A stretch of 64,000 nucleotides of DNA from an uncultured Chloroflexia bacterium. GTDB lineage: Bacteria; Chloroflexota; Limnocylindria; Limnocylindrales; CSP1-4. The stretch spans positions 192,001-256,000 of the forward strand of contig CAVYBU010000002.1 in the NCBI GenBank assembly GCA_963766735.1, given 5' to 3'. The notes beneath the pieces are model-generated. The model did no database searches. It had not been told where the DNA came from and was given only the letters and a program-made list of their open reading frames with translations. Shown here one piece after another: positions 2,527 through 12,177 of this stretch. The position numbers and the translations under genes were made by a program. How positions within the stretch are numbered: the first letter of the stretch is position 1; the number at the start of each line of letters is the position of its first letter.

Positions 2527-3051
2527 GTGGACCCGACGCTCGGCCCGAGCTCCTTCGTCATCCTCGGCATCACCGCCGCGGCCGGACCGATGACGGCCTA
2601 CGACCTCAAGAGCGCGATCGGCCGCTCGGTGGGCTTCCTGTGGCCGTTTCCCCACGCACAGGTCTACAAGGAGACGGCCCGCCTGGCCTCGCTCGGCCTG
2701 CTGGAGGAGGACCAGGAGGCGGGTGGCCGCCGGCGTCGACGCTACGCCGTCACCCCGGCAGGGCGGGCAGCGGTGGAGGCCTGGTTGTCCAGCCCGCCCG
2801 ATGAGCCGGCTCAGCTGCGGGATCCAGGACTGCTCAGGCTGGCGTTCGCGAGCCTCGCGGCGCCGGGCGACCTCGAGCGCCTGTGTGAGGACCAGGTCCG
2901 CGAGCACCTGGCCCGCCTCGCGGTCTACGCGGGCTTCGCCGACGTGCCGATGGACCGATTCCTGCGGGCGACGCTGGAGTTCGGGCTACGCCACGAGGAG
3001 TTGATGGCCGCTGAGTGGGAGCGGCTTCGCAAGACGCTCGGGACGGGCTGA
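2527..3051 (+). CDS. PadR family transcriptional regulator
   Basis: ILG....GPMTAYDL, W...HAQVY.E.ARL, RRRYAVTPAGR winged helix. Confidence 0.9.
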   Translation: MDPTLGPSSFVILGITAAAGPMTAYDLKSAIGRSVGFLWPFPHAQVYKETARLASLGLLEEDQEAGGRRRRRYAVTPAGRAAVEAWLSSPPDEPAQLRDPGLLRLAFASLAAPGDLERLCEDQVREHLARLAVYAGFADVPMDRFLRATLEFGLRHEELMAAEWERLRKTLGTG

Positions 3052-3158: not shown

Positions 3159-3404
3159 CTACCCGTCGCGCTTCACAACCCAGTGCGAGACCTGGTCGAT
3201 GGCCTCCTCTGCCGTCCGGGCGACGTCCACGCGGGCACGCGGGTAGCCAGCCTCGTGGAGTCTTCGCTGGACCTCCGCCGCCGCAGCGGGACCGTCACCA
3301 AGCTCCTCCCGGTGCACGATGTCGCGGGCCTGCTCGTAGGCGCGCACGAACTCGCTGTCGTCCCAGGGGGTGATGCTGGAAGTCGTGTGGATGGAGCTCG
3401 TCAT
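3159..3404 (-). CDS. Small hypothetical protein
   Basis: ATG at 3404 preceded by GGAGGTG RBS; 81-aa ORF with normal composition. Confidence 0.65.
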   Translation of the reverse strand: MTSSIHTTSSITPWDDSEFVRAYEQARDIVHREELGDGPAAAAEVQRRLHEAGYPRARVDVARTAEEAIDQVSHWVVKRDG

Positions 3405-3507
3405 GCCGATCACCTCCACCCGCAGTCTGGGCCGATCGCGCGTCCGGGGACAGGGCCGGACGTCCCGCCCTGCCTCGTCCGGAGCCCCGCCATGAGAGAC
3501 TGACGGC

Positions 3508-4146
3508 ATGGAGCACATCCACGCCATCGTCGGACCGCTCGCCACCAACGTCTACGTGCTGGCGGACCCGTCCACGCGCGAGGCGATCGCCATCGACACG
3601 GCGACGCCGTCCCTGGACTGGATCGCGGGCGCGCTGGAAGAGCGCGAATGGACCCTCAAGCTGATCGTCAGCACGCACGGCCACTGGGACCACATCGGCG
3701 ACAACGCCGCGGTCGCGGAGCACACCGGCGCGTCGATCGCGGTCCATCCCGCGGACCGCCACCGCCTGGAGGACCCGCAACCGCTCTACGCCCCATTCCC
3801 GATCGTGCCGTCCGTGCCCGCGGTGGACCTGGCCGAGGGCGGCGAGATCCGGTTCGGCGACATCCGACTGCGGGTGCTCCACACGCCCGGTCACACCGAA
3901 GGCTCCGTCTGCCTGCTCTCGGGCGACGACGGCCTGCTGTTCAGCGGCGACACGCTGTTCCCCGGCGGCTGGGGCCGCGTGGACTTCCCCGGCGGCTCGG
4001 CGGAGGAGATGGTCGCGTCCATTGCCCGGCTGTCGCAGCTGGAGGACCGCCTCCGCGTGCTTCCCGGACACGGTGCAGCCACGACGATCGGTCACGAGCG
4101 CGGCTGGATGGAGCTGGTCAGGCGCGAGGGTCGCCTCCCGTTCTGA
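3508..4146 (+). CDS. MBL-fold metallo-hydrolase (glyoxalase II-like)
   Basis: THGHWDH, HTPGHT, FSGDTLF and PGHG metal-binding motifs. Confidence 0.92.
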   Translation: MEHIHAIVGPLATNVYVLADPSTREAIAIDTATPSLDWIAGALEEREWTLKLIVSTHGHWDHIGDNAAVAEHTGASIAVHPADRHRLEDPQPLYAPFPIVPSVPAVDLAEGGEIRFGDIRLRVLHTPGHTEGSVCLLSGDDGLLFSGDTLFPGGWGRVDFPGGSAEEMVASIARLSQLEDRLRVLPGHGAATTIGHERGWMELVRREGRLPF

Positions 4147-5179
4147 GGCGCTGCTCCTCGGCCTCCTGGCCCGCGGACCGCCACCCGGCCGGGGCGGGAG
4201 CGTCCAGCGGGCGCCCATACACCTGCCATCGGTGCGCAACCCCGAACCCAAGCCTCTCGTACAGCTGCAACGCGCCCGTCGGGTTGGAGCCGTCCACGCC
4301 CAGCCACGCCTCGGCCATGCCCTGGTCCCGCAGGACCCGCAACGATGCCGAGCAGAGTGCCTTGGCCACGCCACGCCCGCGCCACGGGCGCCGCACCGAG
4401 ACCTGCTCCAGCCACCCGCGGCTGATCGCCAGCTCCTCGATCTCGGCGCGGACGATCGTGTTCATCACGATGCCCGCCACCTGGTCTCCGTCCCACGCGA
4501 TGCACCACAGGGACGTGTCCCGGTCCGGGCCGTGGAACCAGGTGTGGAGGTTCGTCTCGTCCGGCGCGCGATGGCCCCAGTGATCCGCGAACGCCTCGTT
4601 GTTGGCATCGAAGATCGCCCGGTGCTGATCCGGCGTGACCGGCCGCATCTCGAGGCCTACGGGGAGGGGAGCCTCCGGCAGGATCCCGGTGAGCGTCCGG
4701 CGCATCTCAAACCCGTATCGGATGGGGACGAAACCCTCAGCGGCCAGCAGCGCCCTCTTGCCCGTCTCCTGGTCCAGGGCCCAGGAGCGCATCTCCAGCG
4801 GACCGCGCCAGGGATCGGCCGCGCACTCGGCCGCGAGGCGCTCCCGGTTCGCGTGGAAGAGCATCGTCCCGATGCCCCGGCGCCGATGTTCGGGCACGAT
4901 CACGCCCCACGACTCCGCCACGAGCACGCCGTCGCGGACGAGGCGGTACCCGATGGAGAAGCCGGCGAAGGCCCCATCCAGCTCGGCGAGCAGGACATCC
5001 CGCTCCGTCCGGAACGTCGCGGAGTCGGCGTTGTCGGCGGCGAGGGTTGCCCCAGTCTGGACCTCCTCGATCCCGTCGGCGCGGTTGGCGCGGTTGAGCG
5101 CGTCAGCCATCGCGTCCCAGTCTTCGGCCGTGGCGTGCCGGAGCGTGAGCCCGGGGATCGTCGTGGCAGTCGTGCTCAT
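4118..5179 (-). CDS. Tandem-domain GNAT family N-acetyltransferase
   Basis: Two acetyl-CoA motifs (VPEHRRRGIG, VRRPWRGRGVA) and NPTGALQLYERLGF; ATGA overlap with upstream GNAT. Confidence 0.88.
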   Translation of the reverse strand: MSTTATTIPGLTLRHATAEDWDAMADALNRANRADGIEEVQTGATLAADNADSATFRTERDVLLAELDGAFAGFSIGYRLVRDGVLVAESWGVIVPEHRRRGIGTMLFHANRERLAAECAADPWRGPLEMRSWALDQETGKRALLAAEGFVPIRYGFEMRRTLTGILPEAPLPVGLEMRPVTPDQHRAIFDANNEAFADHWGHRAPDETNLHTWFHGPDRDTSLWCIAWDGDQVAGIVMNTIVRAEIEELAISRGWLEQVSVRRPWRGRGVAKALCSASLRVLRDQGMAEAWLGVDGSNPTGALQLYERLGFGVAHRWQVYGRPLDAPAPAGWRSAGQEAEEQRLRTGGDPRA

Positions 5180-6150
5180 CGGTGGTCCTCCCCAGGGTCG
5201 AACGGCTTGCGGTAGGTCGCGCTGCGCGTGACGACGCGGAAGCCGGATGCCTCGTACAGGGTGAGCGCCTGGTTGCGATTGTCCAGGTCCACGCCGAGCC
5301 AGGCGCTGGCGGCCCCGGCCTCCCGGAGGCGCCGGAGGCTCTCCGCCATCGCTGCCCGGCCAAGGCCGCGGCGGCGGTGGTCGGGGCGCGTGGCGAGGGA
5401 TTCGAGGTAGCCCCGGATGGTGCCGTCCGGGGCCGGCTCGAGGAAGTTGCTGAGGCACGCCACCGGCGCGTCGCCCTGCCACGCCACCACGACGAGATCG
5501 CGGCGGAAGCGGGGATCTCCCGCCCAGACGTCGAGCCGCTGATCGCCGGCGTCGTACTCCCCCCAGTGTTCGTTGAAGGCCGTGACCATCACGTCGAAGA
5601 TGGCCGGCAGCTCGTGCTCCTCCGGCGTGCGGATGGCGTAGCCGTCCGGGACGTCGACCGCCGGCAGGTCCAGGAGGTCCGGCCGGAGCATCTGCGCGTC
5701 CCAGCGCACGGCCTCATAGCCGCGACCTGCCAGCGCCAGGAGGAACTCGTCGTCGCCCTCGTCCGCATAGGCGGTGAACCAGGACCGGCGGTCCCGGGCG
5801 TGTGTCCCGGCGATCACCCGCAGGCGCGCCTCGCTCCAGGCGAGGAACGCCTCGGCGATACCCAGGCCCCAGGCGGCGGGCTCGACGATGGCGGTGGAGT
5901 CGTAGACCCGGTCACCGTCGGCCAGGTCGTGCCATTCGACCCGCGCGTAGCCGACGGTGATCCCGTCTCGTTCCGCGATCAGGCAGTCCTCGAGCGGATC
6001 GGAGTTCACGAGGTGGGCGTAGTGATGCTCCATCGCCGCGAGGTTGACCCCGTCGAGCAGCCCGAGCCGGGCCCGCAGCCGTGCACTCGCCGCGGCCATC
6101 CCGGCCAGCTCCTCCGTCCCGCGATACGGGCGGTAGGCGGTGCCGTTCAT
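5176..6150 (-). CDS. Tandem-domain GNAT family N-acetyltransferase
   Basis: VEPAAWGLGIA, TRPDHRRRGLG, N.ALTLYEASGF; ATGA overlap with rsgA. Confidence 0.88.
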   Translation of the reverse strand: MNGTAYRPYRGTEELAGMAAASARLRARLGLLDGVNLAAMEHHYAHLVNSDPLEDCLIAERDGITVGYARVEWHDLADGDRVYDSTAIVEPAAWGLGIAEAFLAWSEARLRVIAGTHARDRRSWFTAYADEGDDEFLLALAGRGYEAVRWDAQMLRPDLLDLPAVDVPDGYAIRTPEEHELPAIFDVMVTAFNEHWGEYDAGDQRLDVWAGDPRFRRDLVVVAWQGDAPVACLSNFLEPAPDGTIRGYLESLATRPDHRRRGLGRAAMAESLRRLREAGAASAWLGVDLDNRNQALTLYEASGFRVVTRSATYRKPFDPGEDHR

Positions 6151-7271
6151 CGGTCTCTCCCGTACTTCTCGGCCATGTACCGGCTGGCGGCCTGGCTGAT
6201 GGCCTTCCACTTCTTCCGCTCCGCCTCGCGGAGGAGCCGGTCCCCGGAGCGCGCGACGTGGGCCGCCTCCTTCTCGAGCTTGCGATAACTCTCGAGGCGG
6301 GCGTGGCTCAACCGGCCGTCGGCGAGGGCGGCACCGATCGCGCAGCCGGGCTCCCGCTCGTGGCGGCAGTCGGCAAACCGGCAGCCCGCGGCGATCTCCA
6401 TGATGTCGGCAAACGCCGGATCCAGTCCGTCGCCTGCGCCGCCGACGCCGAGGGAGCGGATCCCCGGCGTGTCGATGAGGAGCGCGCCGCCGGGCAGGCG
6501 GACGAGCTCGCGATGGGTGGTCGTGTGGCGGCCGCGGGAGTCATCCTCGCGAACCGCGCTGGTGCGCAGGTGCTCGCGCCCGAGGAGCGCGTTGACCAGC
6601 GTGGACTTGCCGACGCCCGACGAGCCCAGGACGACGGCCGTTCTCCCGGGAGCCAGGTGGCGTGTCGCGAGGTCGGCCACGCCGTCTCCGGTCCGCGCGG
6701 AGATCGCGACGACATCCGTCCCCGGGGCCACGCTGCCGGCCGCGGTCCGCAGGCCCTCGAGATCGGCGGCCACGTCCGCCTTGTTGAGGACGACGACGGG
6801 GATCGCGCCCCCGGAATACGCCACGGCGATGTACCGCTCCAGGCGGCGAAGGTTGAAGTCGCCGTCCAGGCCTGCGACGACGAGCGCCACGTCCACGTTG
6901 GCGGCCAGCACCTGCTCGTCGGTTGCGTGGCCCTCCTCGGTTCCGCGCCGGAACACCGTGCGCCGCGGCAGGACGGCATGGATCACGGCGGGCCCTCCAC
7001 CGTCGGTGCTACCGGCGGCAGCCACCCAGTCGCCCACGGCGGGCAGGTCGGCAGGGCCGAGGGCCTCGTGGCGGAGCCGGCCGGCGATGACCGAGTCCCG
7101 GTCCCCGCCGGGAGTGGCGAGGACCCAGGAGGCCCGATGTGAGGCCACGACCCGGGCGGGCTGCCACCCCGTTGCCGTGAACGGCGCGAAGGAGGCGGCC
7201 CAGCCCGGGTCCCAGCCGAGCTCGGTCGGAGTCGCGGGAGCCGCGCCTTCGGTCGGGTGGTCCATCGTCAT
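6147..7271 (-). CDS. rsgA: Ribosome small subunit-dependent GTPase A
   Basis: PAVGDWV, AANVD, NKAD (G4), GSSGVGKST (G1), GRHTTT, DTPG (G3), CRFADCRHEREPGC zinc site. Confidence 0.95.
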   Translation of the reverse strand: MTMDHPTEGAAPATPTELGWDPGWAASFAPFTATGWQPARVVASHRASWVLATPGGDRDSVIAGRLRHEALGPADLPAVGDWVAAAGSTDGGGPAVIHAVLPRRTVFRRGTEEGHATDEQVLAANVDVALVVAGLDGDFNLRRLERYIAVAYSGGAIPVVVLNKADVAADLEGLRTAAGSVAPGTDVVAISARTGDGVADLATRHLAPGRTAVVLGSSGVGKSTLVNALLGREHLRTSAVREDDSRGRHTTTHRELVRLPGGALLIDTPGIRSLGVGGAGDGLDPAFADIMEIAAGCRFADCRHEREPGCAIGAALADGRLSHARLESYRKLEKEAAHVARSGDRLLREAERKKWKAISQAASRYMAEKYGRDR

Positions 7272-8185
7272 CCCACCCGCTTGAGCTTGCCGGTGCGCTT
7301 CGCGTATCGCTCGGCGCGCGCGAACGCCCACAGGCCGGCCGGGATGAGCACGACGCCAAGGATGATCAGGGGGACGATGTCCCCGACGAGGGCCGTGAGC
7401 GGCGCCCCATCGAGGATCCCTGCCCGCACGCCGTCGAGCACGTAGGTTGCCGGCGACAGCCTCGAGATCGCCTGCATCCACTCCGGCAGGACCTCGACCG
7501 GGTAGTAGACCCCGGACACGAGGAGCAGGCACGACTGGATGACGAAGGTCATCTGCGCCCCGCGTTCCACGTAGAGCAGCGGCAGGATCGCGGCCATCAT
7601 GCCGATGCCCACGAAGCTGAACGACCCGAGGAGAACGAAGACCGCGGCGGTCGAGAGGTTCGTCACCCCCAGGTCCAGCCCCCGGTAGAACAGCATCATG
7701 ACCACGAGCATGGCAGCGGTATGCACCAGGCCGTAGCCCATCGCGTACACGCAGGATCCCAGGAGCTGGGTCCAGCGCCGAACCGGCGCCATGAACGTGT
7801 ACTCGAGCGTGCCCTCCCAGCGCTCCATCGCGATCGTCTCTGCGATCCACGAGAAGACGACGGACAGGTAGTTCCAGAAGACGGCGCCGATGATGAGCGT
7901 GAGCAGGAGCCGCTCGTTGCCCTCGGCAGCACCGATCAGGCTGATCGATAGGGCACCGGCGACGGAGTAGACGAGGAAGGCGAGCTCCCACCCCCAGTAC
8001 CGGCGGGTGAGGAAGAAGTTGCGTTCGACGAAGGCGTATGACGCCTTCAGCTCGTGCGCGACGAGAGCCAACGGAGGTTTCCTTTCGAGGTTCCGCTCCC
8101 GGGTCCGGTTGCCCGGACCCGGGATGCGTCTGCGGCGGGGGTCATCCCTGCCACTCGGGGGTGGCCAGGGTCTCGCCTCCGACAC
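7268..8185 (-). CDS. ABC-2 type exporter permease
   Basis: Multiple TM helices, ERWEGTLE, SGVYYPVEVLPEWMQ..S..SPATY motifs. Confidence 0.9.
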   Translation of the reverse strand: MSEARPWPPPSGRDDPRRRRIPGPGNRTRERNLERKPPLALVAHELKASYAFVERNFFLTRRYWGWELAFLVYSVAGALSISLIGAAEGNERLLLTLIIGAVFWNYLSVVFSWIAETIAMERWEGTLEYTFMAPVRRWTQLLGSCVYAMGYGLVHTAAMLVVMMLFYRGLDLGVTNLSTAAVFVLLGSFSFVGIGMMAAILPLLYVERGAQMTFVIQSCLLLVSGVYYPVEVLPEWMQAISRLSPATYVLDGVRAGILDGAPLTALVGDIVPLIILGVVLIPAGLWAFARAERYAKRTGKLKRVG

Positions 8186-8435
8186 GCCGGCCGAGTCGCA
8201 CCAGCGACTCGCCGAACTGGTGGCGGATCGACCGTTTGGACACGGTGTCCGCGCGGTCGGCGCCGTGGATCAACCACTCGGACACGATGGCCGCGCGGTC
8301 GGCATCGCGAATCGCCCGATGGAACGACTTGCGCTCCTCGAAGTTCGCGAGCTGGAGTGCGATGTGATGCACGTGAGGATCCTTTCGGAAGGTGGGGTGA
8401 CGCCTGGTGGTCGTTGCTGGCCGGTTGGTCATCAC
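8142..8435 (-). CDS. Small hypothetical protein within ABC/rsgA operon
   Basis: Strong AAAGGAGGTG RBS; C-terminal G.SLVRLGRRV amphipathic segment; sits between ATPase and permease. Confidence 0.6.
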   Translation of the reverse strand: MMTNRPATTTRRHPTFRKDPHVHHIALQLANFEERKSFHRAIRDADRAAIVSEWLIHGADRADTVSKRSIRHQFGESLVRLGRRVGGETLATPEWQG

Positions 8436-8454
8436 GGCACCTCCTTTCGATGGT

Positions 8455-9405
8455 TCAGTCGGGTGTGTCGCCGTCCTCCTCGACGTCCTCGTCGAGGGAG
8501 CGGCCGGTGAAGGTCATGAACACGGCGTGGAGCGTGGGCTCCTGCCCGTGAACGTCGGCGACCATGCGCTTGAGCCCTTCGGGCGAGTCCTCGGCAACCA
8601 CACGACCCCCATCGAGGATCGTGATCCGGTCGCAGAGGCGCTCAGCCTCGGCCAGGTCGTGCGTGGTGAGGACGATCGTGGCGTCGTGCGCCTTGTTCAT
8701 CTCTTCCACGAAGCCCTGGACGTCGAGCTTGCTGCGCGGGTCGAGGCCCGTCGTCGGCTCATCCAGGAGGAGCACCGTCGGGCTCGTCAGCAGGGCTCGC
8801 GCGATCGCGACCTTCTGCTGCATTCCCCGGCTCATCTGCTCCACCGGGCGTCCGAGGCGGCTCTCCGCGATGCCGAGCCGGGCGAGGATGGCCGTGGCCT
8901 GCCGCTTCGCCTGTCGGGCATCGAGGCCGTAGAGGCGGGCGGCGAAGAGCAGGTTCTCCATCGGGCTCAGCTTCTTGAAGAAGGCCGCGTCCACGCTCAC
9001 CCGGTTGATGAGCCGCTTCACGGCGAGCTCATCGCGCTCGATGTCGAGGCCGAACACCTCCACCTTGCCCTCGTCCAGGGTCAGCAACCCAGAGATCAGG
9101 CGGATGAGGGTCGACTTGCCGGAGCCGTTGGCGCCCAGGACCCCGTGGATCGTGCCGCGCTCCAGGCGGAGCGAGACGTCGTCGATCGCGAGGACCGGGG
9201 GCTTGCGCCGGTCGACGTTGAAACGCTTGGTGACGTGGTCGACGAGGAGAGCCGGCGGGCCAGCCGGGGTCCGGAGCAGGGGGGCGTGCCCTCCCGCGTC
9301 CGGGCCGGCCGGGATCCGCGCGGCGGGCTCGAGGTCGGCGTTGGCGGACATCGGGCTCGACGTCGGAGTGGTCGTCTTCGGTTCGGGCGCGAGGGTTGTG
9401 GTCAC
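8455..9405 (-). CDS. ABC exporter ATP-binding protein (DrrA/NodI-like)
   Basis: GANGSGKST Walker A, MSRGMQQK signature, LLLDEPTTGLD Walker B, TTH; GTG at 9405 after CAGGAGG. Confidence 0.93.
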   Translation of the reverse strand: MTTTLAPEPKTTTPTSSPMSANADLEPAARIPAGPDAGGHAPLLRTPAGPPALLVDHVTKRFNVDRRKPPVLAIDDVSLRLERGTIHGVLGANGSGKSTLIRLISGLLTLDEGKVEVFGLDIERDELAVKRLINRVSVDAAFFKKLSPMENLLFAARLYGLDARQAKRQATAILARLGIAESRLGRPVEQMSRGMQQKVAIARALLTSPTVLLLDEPTTGLDPRSKLDVQGFVEEMNKAHDATIVLTTHDLAEAERLCDRITILDGGRVVAEDSPEGLKRMVADVHGQEPTLHAVFMTFTGRSLDEDVEEDGDTPD

Positions 9406-9536
9406 GGGACCCTCCTGTGGTTGGTGGTGGCTCGGGTTGCGCACCAGGCCGCGGGTCCCAGGCATGGGACGAGCCGCGGGCCCGGTGTTCGGGGGCCTGC
9501 GGCTCGGGGTCGTGCGTGGCCGTGGAGATGCCTGCA

Positions 9537-9572
9537 CAAACAAAAGAGCCGGGGCCCGGTGGCCCACGGCTC
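9537..9572 (-). terminator. Intrinsic terminator (attenuator) in leader of ABC/rsgA operon
   Basis: Minus strand GAGCCG-U-GGGCC-ACCG-GGCCC-CGGCUC followed by UUUUGUUUG, ~130 nt upstream of the first gene. Confidence 0.85.
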
Positions 9573-9604
9573 GGTGGTCGCTCTGGGGCGCCTGGCCCCG
9601 CGTC

Positions 9605-9688
9605 CTACCTGCTGGTGGGCACACCTCTACCGCTGACGGTGCCGAGGGCAGCCGCCGTGCGCGGGTAGAAGACTGCGTTCTTCACCAT
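9605..9688 (-). CDS. Putative 27-aa leader peptide (uORF) MVKNAVFYPRTAAALGTVSGRGVPTSR
   Basis: ATG with upstream GGAGG, located between the promoter and the terminator; coding region can pair with the terminator 5' arm. Confidence 0.65.
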   Translation of the reverse strand: MVKNAVFYPRTAAALGTVSGRGVPTSR

Positions 9689-9744
9689 GGGGCTCACCGC
9701 CTCCGGTAACAGGACGTGCCGAGCGACCTGCTCAGCCGCCGCGG

Positions 9745-9774
9745 ATACTACGCTCCGCTCGGCGGGCTCGTCAA
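9745..9774 (-). promoter_or_regulatory. Sigma70-type promoter of attenuated operon
   Basis: TTGACG-N18-TAGTAT on minus strand. Confidence 0.6.
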
Positions 9775-9954
9775 CCCCAGCCGACGGTCGCGTGCCGCGG
9801 GCGGATCCTGGCGCGGGTTGGCCAGGCCCCGGGGCGGGTGCCGCCCCTGAGACGACACCCGGCAGCTGAGACGACATCCGGCGCCAGCGATCTTGGAACC
9901 GCGCGCCGCCGCCGCGCGTCGACACGGTGGCGCCCCTCAACGAGGATCCCGATC

Positions 9955-10856
9955 GTGCGTCTGCCGACTCGTCTCCATCGTCACCGTGTTCGCCATGCTG
10001 CTCGTCGCTGCCTGCGGCGGTGCCGGAAGTGCTTCGCCGTCCTCCCCTGCGTCGCCCACGTCGGCGCCCTCGGCGGACCCGACCGCCCAGACCTACTGGC
10101 TCCGGGCCATGCCCACCCAGGCCCTGCCACCCGTCAACGTGTTTGCGATGCAGCCGTCTGTCGTCATCACCGGCGACGGCCTTGTCGTCACCCAGGGTCC
10201 CGTTCCGGCGATCTTCCCGGGACCCCTCATGCCCAACCTGCAGGCGCGCCAGCTGTCCGAGGCCGGGCGCTCAGAGATCCTCGCCGCTGCAGCAGAGCTG
10301 GGCCTGCTCGAGGGCAAGACCGACTTCAGCTCGGGGGAGCCGATCATGGGCGGCATGAGCGGCCGGATCGAGCTCACGGTCGACGGCCAGGCTCGTCACG
10401 CTCACCGGCAACCCCGATGCCCTCATGGAGTGCGTGACCACGCCCTGCGAGCCGCCCGCGGGCTCGCCCGCGGCGTTCGCGGAGTTCTGGCGCCGTCTCG
10501 GCGACTTGCCGTCGTGGATCCCGGACGAGCTGGGCCCGGAGGCGCCGTACGAGGCCCAGGCCTATGCGATCCTCGTCGGCCCCGCCCCGATGCCCGACCC
10601 GAACCTCCCGCAGCCCCCGATGGAATGGCCGCTCGAGCAGCCATTGGGCCTCTTCGGTGGCCCGGTCGCGGACGGCTCCTACCGGTGTGGCACGGTGTCA
10701 GGCGACGACGCGGCCACGCTGCGGCCCGCGCTGGAGGCGGCGAACCAGCTGACCCAGTGGGTCGACGATCCGACGACGAGCGCCACCTTCGGCCTCACCG
10801 TGCGCCCGATGGTGCCTGGCGAGGATGTCTGCCGGGAGGTGTTCGGCCCCGCCTGA
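9955..10856 (+). CDS. Hypothetical lipoprotein, frameshifted (extra G near 10390; start region also out of frame)
   Basis: Lipobox LVAAC plus S/P linker in one frame; continues LVTLTGNPDALMECVTTPC in the +1 frame. Confidence 0.6.
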
Positions 10857-10908: not shown

Positions 10909-11475
10909 TCAGGGACGACGCCTGACCACGACCCGCGGTCGTCCCGCGGCCCTGGACGTGGTGGGGGAGACGACCGCGAACCCGGCTCGCTCGAACATCG
11001 CAGTCGTGCCGGTGTAGGCAGCCGCGGAAGCCATCCGATCCCCGCCGGTTTCCACCGGGTAGCCCTCGAGGGTCGTCGCCCCGTTGGCCCTGGCGTATGC
11101 GACCGCCGCGTCAAGCAGCGCGCCGGCCACTCCGCTCCGCCGCGACGTCCTCGCGACCACGAAGCAGTTCACGACCCACACCCCATCCCCGGGGAGCTGC
11201 GGGATCGTGCGCGATCTCGCCAGTCGTCCGAAGTCCTCGCGCGGCCCGAGTCCAACCCAGCCGACAGCCTTCCCGTCCCGCAGCGCCACCAGGCCGGGCG
11301 CCGGATCCCGCCCCACGAGTGCGCGCAGGTCCCGACGGGATTCGTCCACCGAGGTGTACCAGTTGGACCCGGGCTTGCGCCAGAACTGGCACCAGCACGA
11401 CTTCGGGTCGCCACCGGCGGCGAACAGCTCGACGATCGCCGGCCAGACGGCAGGGGACGCGGGCACGATCTCCAC
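10909..11475 (-). CDS. GNAT family N-acetyltransferase (CWC-type)
   Basis: CWC.FWR, WVVNCFVV..TSRRSGVA, EGYPV, YTG..AMF.RAGF motifs. Confidence 0.88.
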   Translation of the reverse strand: MEIVPASPAVWPAIVELFAAGGDPKSCWCQFWRKPGSNWYTSVDESRRDLRALVGRDPAPGLVALRDGKAVGWVGLGPREDFGRLARSRTIPQLPGDGVWVVNCFVVARTSRRSGVAGALLDAAVAYARANGATTLEGYPVETGGDRMASAAAYTGTTAMFERAGFAVVSPTTSRAAGRPRVVVRRRP

Positions 11476-11966
11476 CTGAGGAGGATAACAATGCCCGGTC
11501 GCCCGCCGAGGCTGGTCGCCGGGGCTCAGCCGAGTCGCTCGACCACCAGGACGAAGTCCACACGCTGCGCCCAGAGAACGTGGAGCGTCACGTTGGGGAT
11601 GATGGCGACAACGTCGCCCTCGAGGTCGTTGAGGAACCGCTCGAGGTTGGCCTGATCCCTGGTCATCCGGAGATTGAACCGATGAACGCGGTAGCGCATG
11701 ACATACCTCCGGCCCCAGCGTAGGAGGGCACCGTCCTTCCGATCCAGAGCCGAAGGGTCTAGACCGACCCCACGTATCGGCAGCCCTCGGAACCTGAGGA
11801 GAGGCGTTGCGTCAGGGATGCTCGTGATCGCGGACCGAGGAACCGGGATGACGACGGGGATATCGCGGCAGCCCCGCTTGACACCAGCACGACTTCGGGT
11901 CGCCACCGGCGGCGAACAGCTCGACGATCGCCGGCCAGACGGCAGGGGACGCGGGCACGATCTCCA
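11390..11966. repeat. Perfect 85-bp direct repeat (11390-11474 and 11882-11966) equal to the 5' end of the GNAT gene
   Basis: caccagcacgacttcgggtcg...gggcacgatctcca is identical at both positions. Confidence 0.95.
11526..11699 (-). CDS. Small hypothetical protein (57 aa) between the direct repeats
   Basis: GGAGG RBS; MRYRVHRF...LERFLNDLEGDVVAIIPNV..VDFVLVVE looks like a folded small domain. Confidence 0.7.
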   Translation of the reverse strand: MRYRVHRFNLRMTRDQANLERFLNDLEGDVVAIIPNVTLHVLWAQRVDFVLVVERLG

Positions 11967-11967
11967 T
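11812..11967 (-). pseudogene. Truncated duplicate of the GNAT N-terminus
   Basis: MEIVPASPAVWPAIVELFAAGGDPKSCWCQ, then unrelated sequence and a stop. Confidence 0.75.
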
Positions 11968-12177
11968 CATTCGATGGTAGCGCCGGAGGGAAACGCGGCG
12001 ATTGTCCCCCGGGGGCCAGCGGTTCTCTGGAGAGCCGGCCCAAGCCCGGCGTTGGTGGGACGCTGACTCACCCTGCGTGGTTGCACCAGCGGCGACCGGC
12101 CCCATGGCAGGTGCCCCGACGGCCTATGCTGGTCGGGGTCATCCCGCTCTCGCTGAACCCGCCTCGGAGGTATCGGA

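Follow-up and report, generated by a model that had tools for sequence, protein, structure and literature searches.

A probable leader-peptide transcription attenuator before an ABC-2 exporter, RsgA and tandem-GNAT operon in Candidatus Limnocylindria

The window analysed here is a 64,000-nucleotide (nt) stretch of contig CAVYBU010000002.1 from an uncultured bacterium of the Chloroflexota. Between positions 9774 and 4118 its minus strand carries one operon, preceded by a leader that is probably a ribosome-dependent leader-peptide transcription attenuator. The six co-oriented genes encode, in order, an ABC transporter ATPase, the product of a small open reading frame (ORF), an ABC-2 permease, the 30S-maturation GTPase RsgA and two tandem-GNAT acetyltransferases. 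An initial annotation of the sequence had placed these six genes behind a promoter, an upstream ORF (uORF) and a terminator, and all of these parts were located (Table 1). The uORF, the terminator, an anti-terminator pairing and the linkage of the genes, together with its history, are borne out by comparison of the sequences of relatives. The relatives that have the leader belong to Candidatus Limnocylindria, a class of the Chloroflexota that is taken here as five families, f1 to f5; the window belongs to genus g1 of family f1.

Table 1. Parts of the leader and operon, in window coordinates
Feature	Position	Strand	Description
Sigma-70-type promoter	9745..9774	(-)	TTGACG-18 nt-TAGTAT; consensus scan
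5' leader hairpin, upstream of uORF	9719..9735	(-)	CUGAGC-AGGUC-GCUCGG; RNAalifold
Leader ORF (uORF)	9605..9688	(-)	27 codons + TAG; Shine-Dalgarno (SD) sequence GGAGG 9704-9700, 8 nt before ATG
Region 2, anti-terminator 5' strand	9615..9625	(-)	GGUGUGCCCAC; inside last uORF codons, encodes G-R-S-V-P
Spacer hairpin A	9579..9604	(-)	directly after stop codon
Intrinsic terminator B (regions 3 and 4)	9538..9572	(-)	stem 9572-9546, U-tract 9545-9538
Anti-terminator 3' strand	9558..9567	(-)	terminator 5' arm and loop (region 3)
Hairpin C	9471..9505	(-)	arms nearly copy terminator arms
Hairpin D	9455..9470	(-)	small hairpin following hairpin C
ABC transporter ATP-binding subunit	8455..9405	(-)	GTG start 9405; 316 amino acids; Pfam ABC_tran 1e-31
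Small ORF	8142..8435	(-)	97 codons; family-less
ABC-2 type permease	7268..8071	(-)	TTG start 8071; 267 amino acids; Pfam ABC2_membrane 4.3e-17
RsgA/YjeQ 30S-maturation GTPase	6147..7271	(-)	374 amino acids; Pfam RsgA_GTPase 1.2e-47
Tandem-GNAT acetyltransferase 1 (GNAT1)	5176..6150	(-)	324 amino acids; Pfam Acetyltransf_1, two stretches
Tandem-GNAT acetyltransferase 2 (GNAT2)	4118..5179	(-)	353 amino acids; Pfam Acetyltransf_1, two stretches

The evidence for an attenuator includes the pairing of the last codons of the uORF, here called region 2, with the 5' arm and loop of the terminator. In the window, the duplex of 9615-9625 with 9567-9558 is predicted at -19.8 kcal/mol, compared with -19.4 kcal/mol for the terminator. 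Among the leaders, cognate duplexes have a mean of -19.1 kcal/mol (44 unique pairs), against -16.1 for non-cognate and -12.0 +/- 3.1 for shuffled ones, and are as strong as the terminators. The two strands change together. The base that follows GCCC in the uORF and the base that precedes GGGC in the terminator arm are A:T in 37 leaders and T:A in 25, with non-pairing combinations in 10 (n=72). In most genera GAUCUG in the uORF is matched by CAGAUC in the loop, and in the window's genus GGUG is matched by CACC. Leaders that lie outside the set used for model building have further swaps, GAUCCG/CGGAU and GUUCC/GGAAC.

Counts of pairs by column on a MAFFT alignment were unsuitable because loop lengths differ between clades, and an alignment fitted to a covariance model was used instead. 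On this alignment, 92.8% of the cells of the anti-terminator are paired, against 83.5 +/- 0.6 in shuffles (0/500) and 30-54% when the partner is slid, and six of its 11 pairs are changed on both sides; the alignment leans towards structure, but one clade is still wrongly placed at two pairs, where pairing is accordingly understated. Until the terminator has been transcribed, the predicted partner of region 2 is the 5' half of the uORF, with 8.8 of 14 nt paired against 6.4 in shuffled controls, and the prediction exceeds the matching control for 56 of 71 leaders.

The uORF itself is open in all 18 leaders of the genus (17 loci and the window), where the leader is more conserved than the proteins. 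Across 92 unique leaders, 84 have a uORF of 18 to 34 codons with an ATG and an SD sequence, GTG or TTG serves as the start in another two, and the rule left six unassigned. The peptide ends in x-G-R-S/G-V/A-P-x-x-x-stop. The distance from GCCC, which is in the pairing strand at the proline codon, to the stop codon is exactly 9 nt in 66 of 72 leaders, while the three intervening codons vary freely. The conservation of GRSVP can be attributed to RNA pairing rather than to the peptide, since the V/A alternation falls at the bulged base and the S/G alternation co-varies with the loop. Runs of a single amino acid are not visible in the uORF peptides by eye, and an RLR arrest motif is not conserved in them.

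The other parts of the leader were also analysed. The promoter is the only sigma-70-like match in positions 3400-10200, where shuffles gave 0.2 +/- 0.4; alignment of the leaders of the genus shows TTGAC..TAGACT/TAGTAT to be retained, and other genera, as well as family f4, also display it. Within the 5' leader hairpin, the pairs 47-51/57-61 of alignment A1 by RNAalifold are kept in all 18 sequences or in all but one. Spacer hairpin A has five pairs, each changed on both sides, and 96.6% of its cells are paired. The terminator is a GC hairpin followed by TTTTGTTTG, which was flagged by a terminator scan too; in the leaders such hairpins fold at -19 to -30 kcal/mol, and in most of them a T-run follows the stem. 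Its helix has 90.3% of cells paired (73 distinct sequences) and is nearly invariant, as is expected for a strand under two constraints. For hairpins C and D, RNAalifold found compensatory changes at 295/321, 298/318 and 330/341. Of 91 unique leaders, 43 match a strict pattern for hairpin C and have 3-6 T in the 12 nt that follow; the pattern misses true cases including the one in the window. Hairpin C may be a second terminator that is coupled to the first through the freed 3' arm.

In the attenuators of the trp, his and leu operons, the alternative pairings are 1:2, 2:3 and 3:4, the last part of the leader ORF overlaps region 2, and the stop codon is so placed that region 2 is masked by a ribosome that terminates. 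The leader described here is like these in its proposed four-region pairing and in the placement of region 2 and the stop codon, but no regulatory codon run is visible by eye and the cargo is not biosynthetic. In the proposed mechanism, transcription would start approximately 50 nt before the 27-codon uORF, and region 2 (GGUGUGCCCAC) would have two alternative partners, region 1 in the 5' half of the uORF or region 3 in the 5' arm and loop of the terminator. The pairing 2:3 would prevent the terminator stem 3:4. On reaching the stop codon, whose position 9 nt beyond region 2 is fixed, a ribosome would cover the GC-rich half of region 2; the terminator would then form and transcription would end. 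A ribosome lagging or stalled early in the uORF would free region 2 from region 1, allowing the anti-terminator to form and the RNA polymerase to read into the operon. It is this direction of the switch, with stalling as its signal, that is proposed.

A pattern scan for the leader, using one genome per species, gave 45 loci. Twenty-nine of these are leaders before the same ABC genes; the other 16 fall by chance within unrelated genes, for example of Streptomyces and Janibacter, and have no ABC genes. A total of 72 leaders were aligned (A2) and the covariance model was built on these. It matches the leader in 76 of 98 sources, once per locus, including four that were not used in building it, and it matches neither nine RsgA loci from other families nor 13 of the chance-pattern loci. 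The arrangement is well beyond what chance would give. Exactly one leader per genome is found by the model, the window's genome included; a regulon of several leaders was considered and set aside on this single match. In genomes at least 85% complete, the leader is present in 45 of 49 in f1 and 50 of 55 in f4, compared with 0/7 in f2, 0/38 in f3 and 0/1 in f5. These family tallies, and those of RsgA given below, take in genomes flagged as unpublished (G122, G131, G140, G157, G191, G278 and G320), on which no locus-level claim rests.

Among 121 loci examined, 96 have the leader, and the ABC genes are right behind it in 94 of the 96; RsgA is in the operon in 65 and absent from it in 31, in a sample that is biased because loci L007-L063 were chosen by RsgA and a few contigs were fetched twice. 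None of the 16 loci from f4 has RsgA in the operon; behind the leader they carry the ATPase, the permease and then tandem-GNAT genes, numbering from one to three or more. In f1, RsgA lies next to the ABC genes in every one of the 17 loci from the genus, and other genera share this arrangement in 27 of 28 loci. Linkage of ABC, RsgA and GNAT genes is thus conserved, although the positions of the GNAT genes and RsgA shuffle: in f1 the GNAT copy number ranges from 0 to 3, and the copies may precede RsgA, follow it or flank it. The exception is locus L048 (G109), where the leader, the small ORF, RsgA and a GNAT gene are found at 6985-8800 (-) with both ABC genes missing; the N- and C-terminal parts of this RsgA are in different frames, which could be a frameshift or an assembly error. 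When f1 genomes were searched for both, none had RsgA without the leader, four had neither and three lacked RsgA but had the leader, all of them from genus g10.

The ancient unit, as far as these comparisons reach, is the leader with the exporter and tandem GNATs, and RsgA is in the operon only in the window's family. This core either predates the split of f1 and f4 or was moved between them. It would consist of the ABC-2 exporter, often the small accessory ORF, and one to four fast-evolving tandem-GNAT genes. The rates at which the proteins have changed differ. Identity is 61-95% for the ATPase and permease across f1 and f4 (62-89% for the ATPase across f1, 61-95% for the permease in relatives), 45-77% for RsgA within f1, with 93% in the nearest relative, and 30-72% for the GNATs.

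The order of the genes differs in part from the one given in the initial annotation. The components are as named there, but the small ORF sits between the ATPase and permease genes rather than after the exporter. The last five genes had also been described as joined by overlaps. ATGA overlaps are indeed present from the permease gene onward, at three junctions (permease/RsgA, RsgA/GNAT1 and GNAT1/GNAT2), but with the preferred starts the small ORF overlaps neither neighbour, being separated by 19 nt from the ATPase gene and by 70 nt from the permease gene. A weak extra point comes from contigs of RNA libraries (Logan contigs at small shares, 0.05-0.22), 90-99% identical, that bridge the terminator to the ATPase start, the ATPase/small ORF, permease/RsgA and GNAT1/GNAT2 junctions; the parts that they leave uncovered are uninformative.

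The RsgA of the window is the only match over the Pfam cut-off in its own genome, which is 93.85% complete in 35 contigs. It scores 141.1 bits against the equivalog model TIGR00157 (cut-off 100) and 162.5 against Pfam RsgA_GTPase (cut-off 30), and is below the cut-offs of the longer models NF008931 and NF008932. The translation has NKAD, then GSSGVGKST, then DTPG, and then a C..C.H.....C cluster, which we take to be the circularly permuted G4-G1-G3 motifs and the C-terminal zinc-binding Cys/His cluster of these proteins. In these respects, the score over the curated cut-off, the motif order and the cluster, it is like housekeeping RsgA/YjeQ; what differs is its setting in an attenuator-controlled exporter and acetyltransferase operon. 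In genus g1, 21 of 24 genomes have an RsgA match, nearly all single. Two genomes have two matches, which are adjoining pieces on one contig in G008, while in G018 the whole operon is on two contigs. The two copies of the leader and operon in G018 (L007 and L008) encode ABC proteins 81-90% identical to those of the window, and a mixed bin is more likely than a true duplication.

In f4, RsgA is at least 170 kb from the leader in all six cases where both are on one contig. The genomes of family f2 (G025-G040, approximately 1.1 Mb) have no RsgA, with 0/16 by Pfam family and 0/12 by protein search, and RsgA therefore appears to be dispensable in this order. A tree of 55 rows, made by a quick method only and with a midpoint root, recovers g1 as a single clade (99) and f4 as another, long-branched clade (100), with the f3 and f5 rows at an unresolved base among the f1 lineages. 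These relationships suggest that the RsgA of the operon belongs to one orthologous lineage with the free-standing RsgA of f3 and f5, and is no separate paralog. No other sigma-70-like site was found in the operon by consensus scan. It appears that the single rsgA of the lineage was recruited into the operon in the window's family, and this 30S-maturation GTPase would therefore be co-transcribed, and probably co-induced by the same signal, with the exporter and the GNATs.

The initial annotation had gone further and seen in this RsgA a possible extra copy of the kind represented by HflXr, for which a second, housekeeping rsgA should be found elsewhere in the genome. It was looked for and only the one match was found. 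Of the stalling-responsive efflux and acetylation operon that had been envisaged, the attenuator anatomy stands, with its co-varying anti-terminator, as does the conserved gene linkage, but the HflXr-like extra RsgA does not. In its fuller form the idea makes RsgA a dedicated stress-induced ribosome-rescue or resistance factor, the small-subunit counterpart of HflXr, in a complete antibiotic response with efflux and drug acetylation. The position of RsgA behind the attenuator, the ATGA overlap with the permease gene and its persistence in the operon across genera while its position relative to the GNATs changes are all consistent with this. So is a 1.4-kb insert beside RsgA in two genomes, which in L023 encodes an FtsH-like AAA protease and would fit a theme of translation and proteostasis. 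Nevertheless, it is unlikely: RsgA is the sole copy in a 94%-complete genome and single in nearly all relatives, passes the RsgA equivalog model and groups with the free-standing proteins in one lineage, and the same leader and operon are without it in f4. By definition, HflXr is an additional homolog in a genome that also has a non-induced hflX (PMC6310831). A related proposal is that the sole RsgA is made mainly when ribosomes lag on the leader, and so serves, together with the exporter and the acetyltransferases, as a small-subunit repair arm of an inducible response to 30S-directed compounds; this too has only a small chance of being correct.

The linkage of rsgA to the ABC genes may instead be an inherited gene order without functional coupling, with rsgA expressed constitutively from an internal promoter. 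Confinement of the linkage to one family means that a single ancestral event could suffice, and in some genomes gaps or an inserted gene lie between the permease gene and rsgA. However, the linkage survives repeated local rearrangement, with the GNAT gene before or after RsgA in 0 to 3 copies, the window has ATGA overlaps, the consensus scan found no promoter-like site inside the operon, and in L048 the leader, the small ORF and RsgA remain together even without the ABC genes. Uncoupled inheritance is therefore unlikely. A different signal is also conceivable, in which a nutritional attenuator senses charged transfer RNA and the operon acetylates or exports a metabolite or a toxic amino-acid analogue, and not an antibiotic. 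The proposed four-region layout is that of the classic amino-acid operon attenuators, the ABC proteins are highly conserved, and GNATs that detoxify amino-acid analogues are known; the uORF peptides, however, are without a single-amino-acid run (by eye) and the operon is without a biosynthetic gene, making this quite improbable. Finally, the hairpins could be binding sites for a protein, either an operon product or a ribosomal protein, in autogenous regulation independent of uORF translation. Hairpins B and C carry near-identical arms and could represent a repeated site of this kind, but hairpin C is missing in part of the leaders, including the g34 loci. Such sites would leave unexplained why 84 of 92 leaders have an in-frame uORF with an SD sequence, why its stop codon keeps a 9-nt spacing and why uORF codons co-vary with the terminator loop, and this explanation is very improbable.

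Some observations weigh against the attenuator and its proposed operon. The pairing of regions 1 and 2 is only modestly above the shuffled control in a GC-rich RNA, and the U-tract directly after the stem is poor in six of the 18 leaders of the genus. It is possible that the conserved GRSVP peptide matters in itself, for example as an arrest peptide, a role that the proposed switch does not need. The ABC proteins, at 61-95% identity, are unusually conserved for a drug pump and would fit housekeeping export too. In some genomes 0.2-1.4 kb lie between the permease gene and rsgA, a consensus scan cannot exclude internal rsgA promoters, and the RNA-library contigs cannot show levels, ends or single transcripts, and RNA libraries may contain DNA. 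With these points taken into account, a leader-peptide attenuator remains the probable reading. The most likely job of the operon would be the export and acetylation of a compound that disturbs translation. This inducible detoxification reading fits the combination of a probably stalling-sensitive leader, an exporter, and acetyltransferases that are quickly duplicating and diverging; the inducer and the substrates would be compounds of this type, and RsgA would depend on read-through.

The products of the operon were compared with several known systems. A daunorubicin-type DrrAB exporter was rejected, with 228 bits for drrA against 312.45 and 44.3 for drrB against 223, and only the ABC_tran and ABC2_membrane domains were recognised. 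A search of the permease against solved structures gave no match. For the GNATs, a link to mycothiol through the synthase MshD was likewise rejected, as TIGR03448 gave 40.6 bits (GNAT1) and 70 bits (GNAT2) against 163.1 and only the layout of two GNAT domains is common to them. An actinobacterial origin, which the high G+C content and these MshD-like matches had suggested, was set aside as well, the relatives being Chloroflexota. The nearest solved chains to GNAT2 are 7q3a and 3tt2 (E ~1e-25), both of which were deposited only as GNAT acetyltransferases. The small ORF has no match in Pfam, NCBIfam or PADLOC. It was found by tblastn in 14 of 17 loci of the genus, and an open frame with its conserved C-terminal motif is present in 57 of 90 unique gaps between the ATPase and permease genes, nine gaps being too short and 24 being without a match to the motif. 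The Protein Atlas gave only unnamed Chloroflexota clusters for it at 0.85, which is a lead only. A defence system was not indicated, since the PADLOC matches were only generic P-loop matches to the ATPase and RsgA. Nor did the leader correspond to a known RNA family; a search of Rfam with E up to 10 returned four chance-level matches in 9300-10100 (E 0.21-2.3), all far below the gathering scores.

Other features were seen around the operon and within it in relatives. The insert in L023 (4333-5712, +), from one relative of the genus, is a gene of 460 codons that separates rsgA from the permease gene; its product has AAA and Peptidase_M41 domains and no obvious membrane part. There are similar gaps of approximately 1.4 kb in L019 (~6818-8200) and L037 (~5567-6989). 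In the window, an MBL-fold hydrolase gene (3508-4146, +) converges on the operon and overlaps the end of the GNAT2 gene by 29 nt. It scores 98 bits against a GloB-like model, below the cut-off of 200, and throughout family f1 this gene is retained next to the operon on its 3' side. Beyond it lies a gene for a PadR-family regulator (2527-3051, +). On the other side, a single-domain GNAT gene (10909-11475, -) is kept in many genera as the next gene upstream of the leader. Its first ~30 codons recur approximately 500 nt further upstream (~11812-12105, -), and this repeated peptide start in two ORFs suggests a partial duplication.

The closest worked-out analogue is bmrB-bmrCD of Bacillus subtilis, where a multidrug ABC transporter is under ribosome-mediated transcriptional attenuation and is induced by ribosome-targeting antibiotics (PMC4191407). 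The two have in common a short leader ORF with alternative stem-loops and an intrinsic terminator before ABC exporter genes, with translation of the leader, here by proposal, as part of the decision. They differ in that the exporter here is of the two-gene ABC-2 type rather than a BmrCD-type pair of half-transporters, the terminator lies after the uORF and not inside it, and the operon adds GNATs and RsgA. There is no sequence relation between them. In Listeria monocytogenes, rli80-hflXr encodes a second HflX homolog, which confers resistance; its induction, not shared by the other homolog, proceeds through an RLR-containing leader of 14 codons (PMC6310831). The likeness is a gene for a ribosome-associated GTPase behind a uORF-dependent transcription attenuator; the differences are that RsgA here is the sole copy and that the leader has no conserved RLR arrest motif.

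Leader-peptide attenuation is itself known, and the leader is a new example of a familiar type of switch. A literature search found no paper that joins RsgA with an ABC transporter, attenuation and a leader peptide, and none on transcription attenuation with a leader peptide in Chloroflexi. The main text of a 2026 paper on Limnocylindria/CSP1-4 genomics contains none of rsgA, ribosom-, attenuat-, efflux, acetyltransferase or antibiotic. To our knowledge, almost all known leader-peptide attenuators are from Proteobacteria and Firmicutes. The present one is a well-supported attenuator in an uncultured class of the Chloroflexota, with clear co-variation of its anti-terminator and no Rfam family. 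Its cargo is unusual, in that an ABC-2 exporter is combined with expanding tandem GNATs and, in one family, also with the sole RsgA.

The leader is a compact element, and its logic is testable in a heterologous or cell-free system. The association with rsgA raises the question of whether a ribosome-assembly GTPase can be expressed in response to translation stress. If this were true of the window's family, its sole RsgA would be a functional, though not an evolutionary, counterpart of HflXr. The leader and its operon are likely to be an inducible detoxification module in abundant, not yet grown bacteria of soils and sediments.

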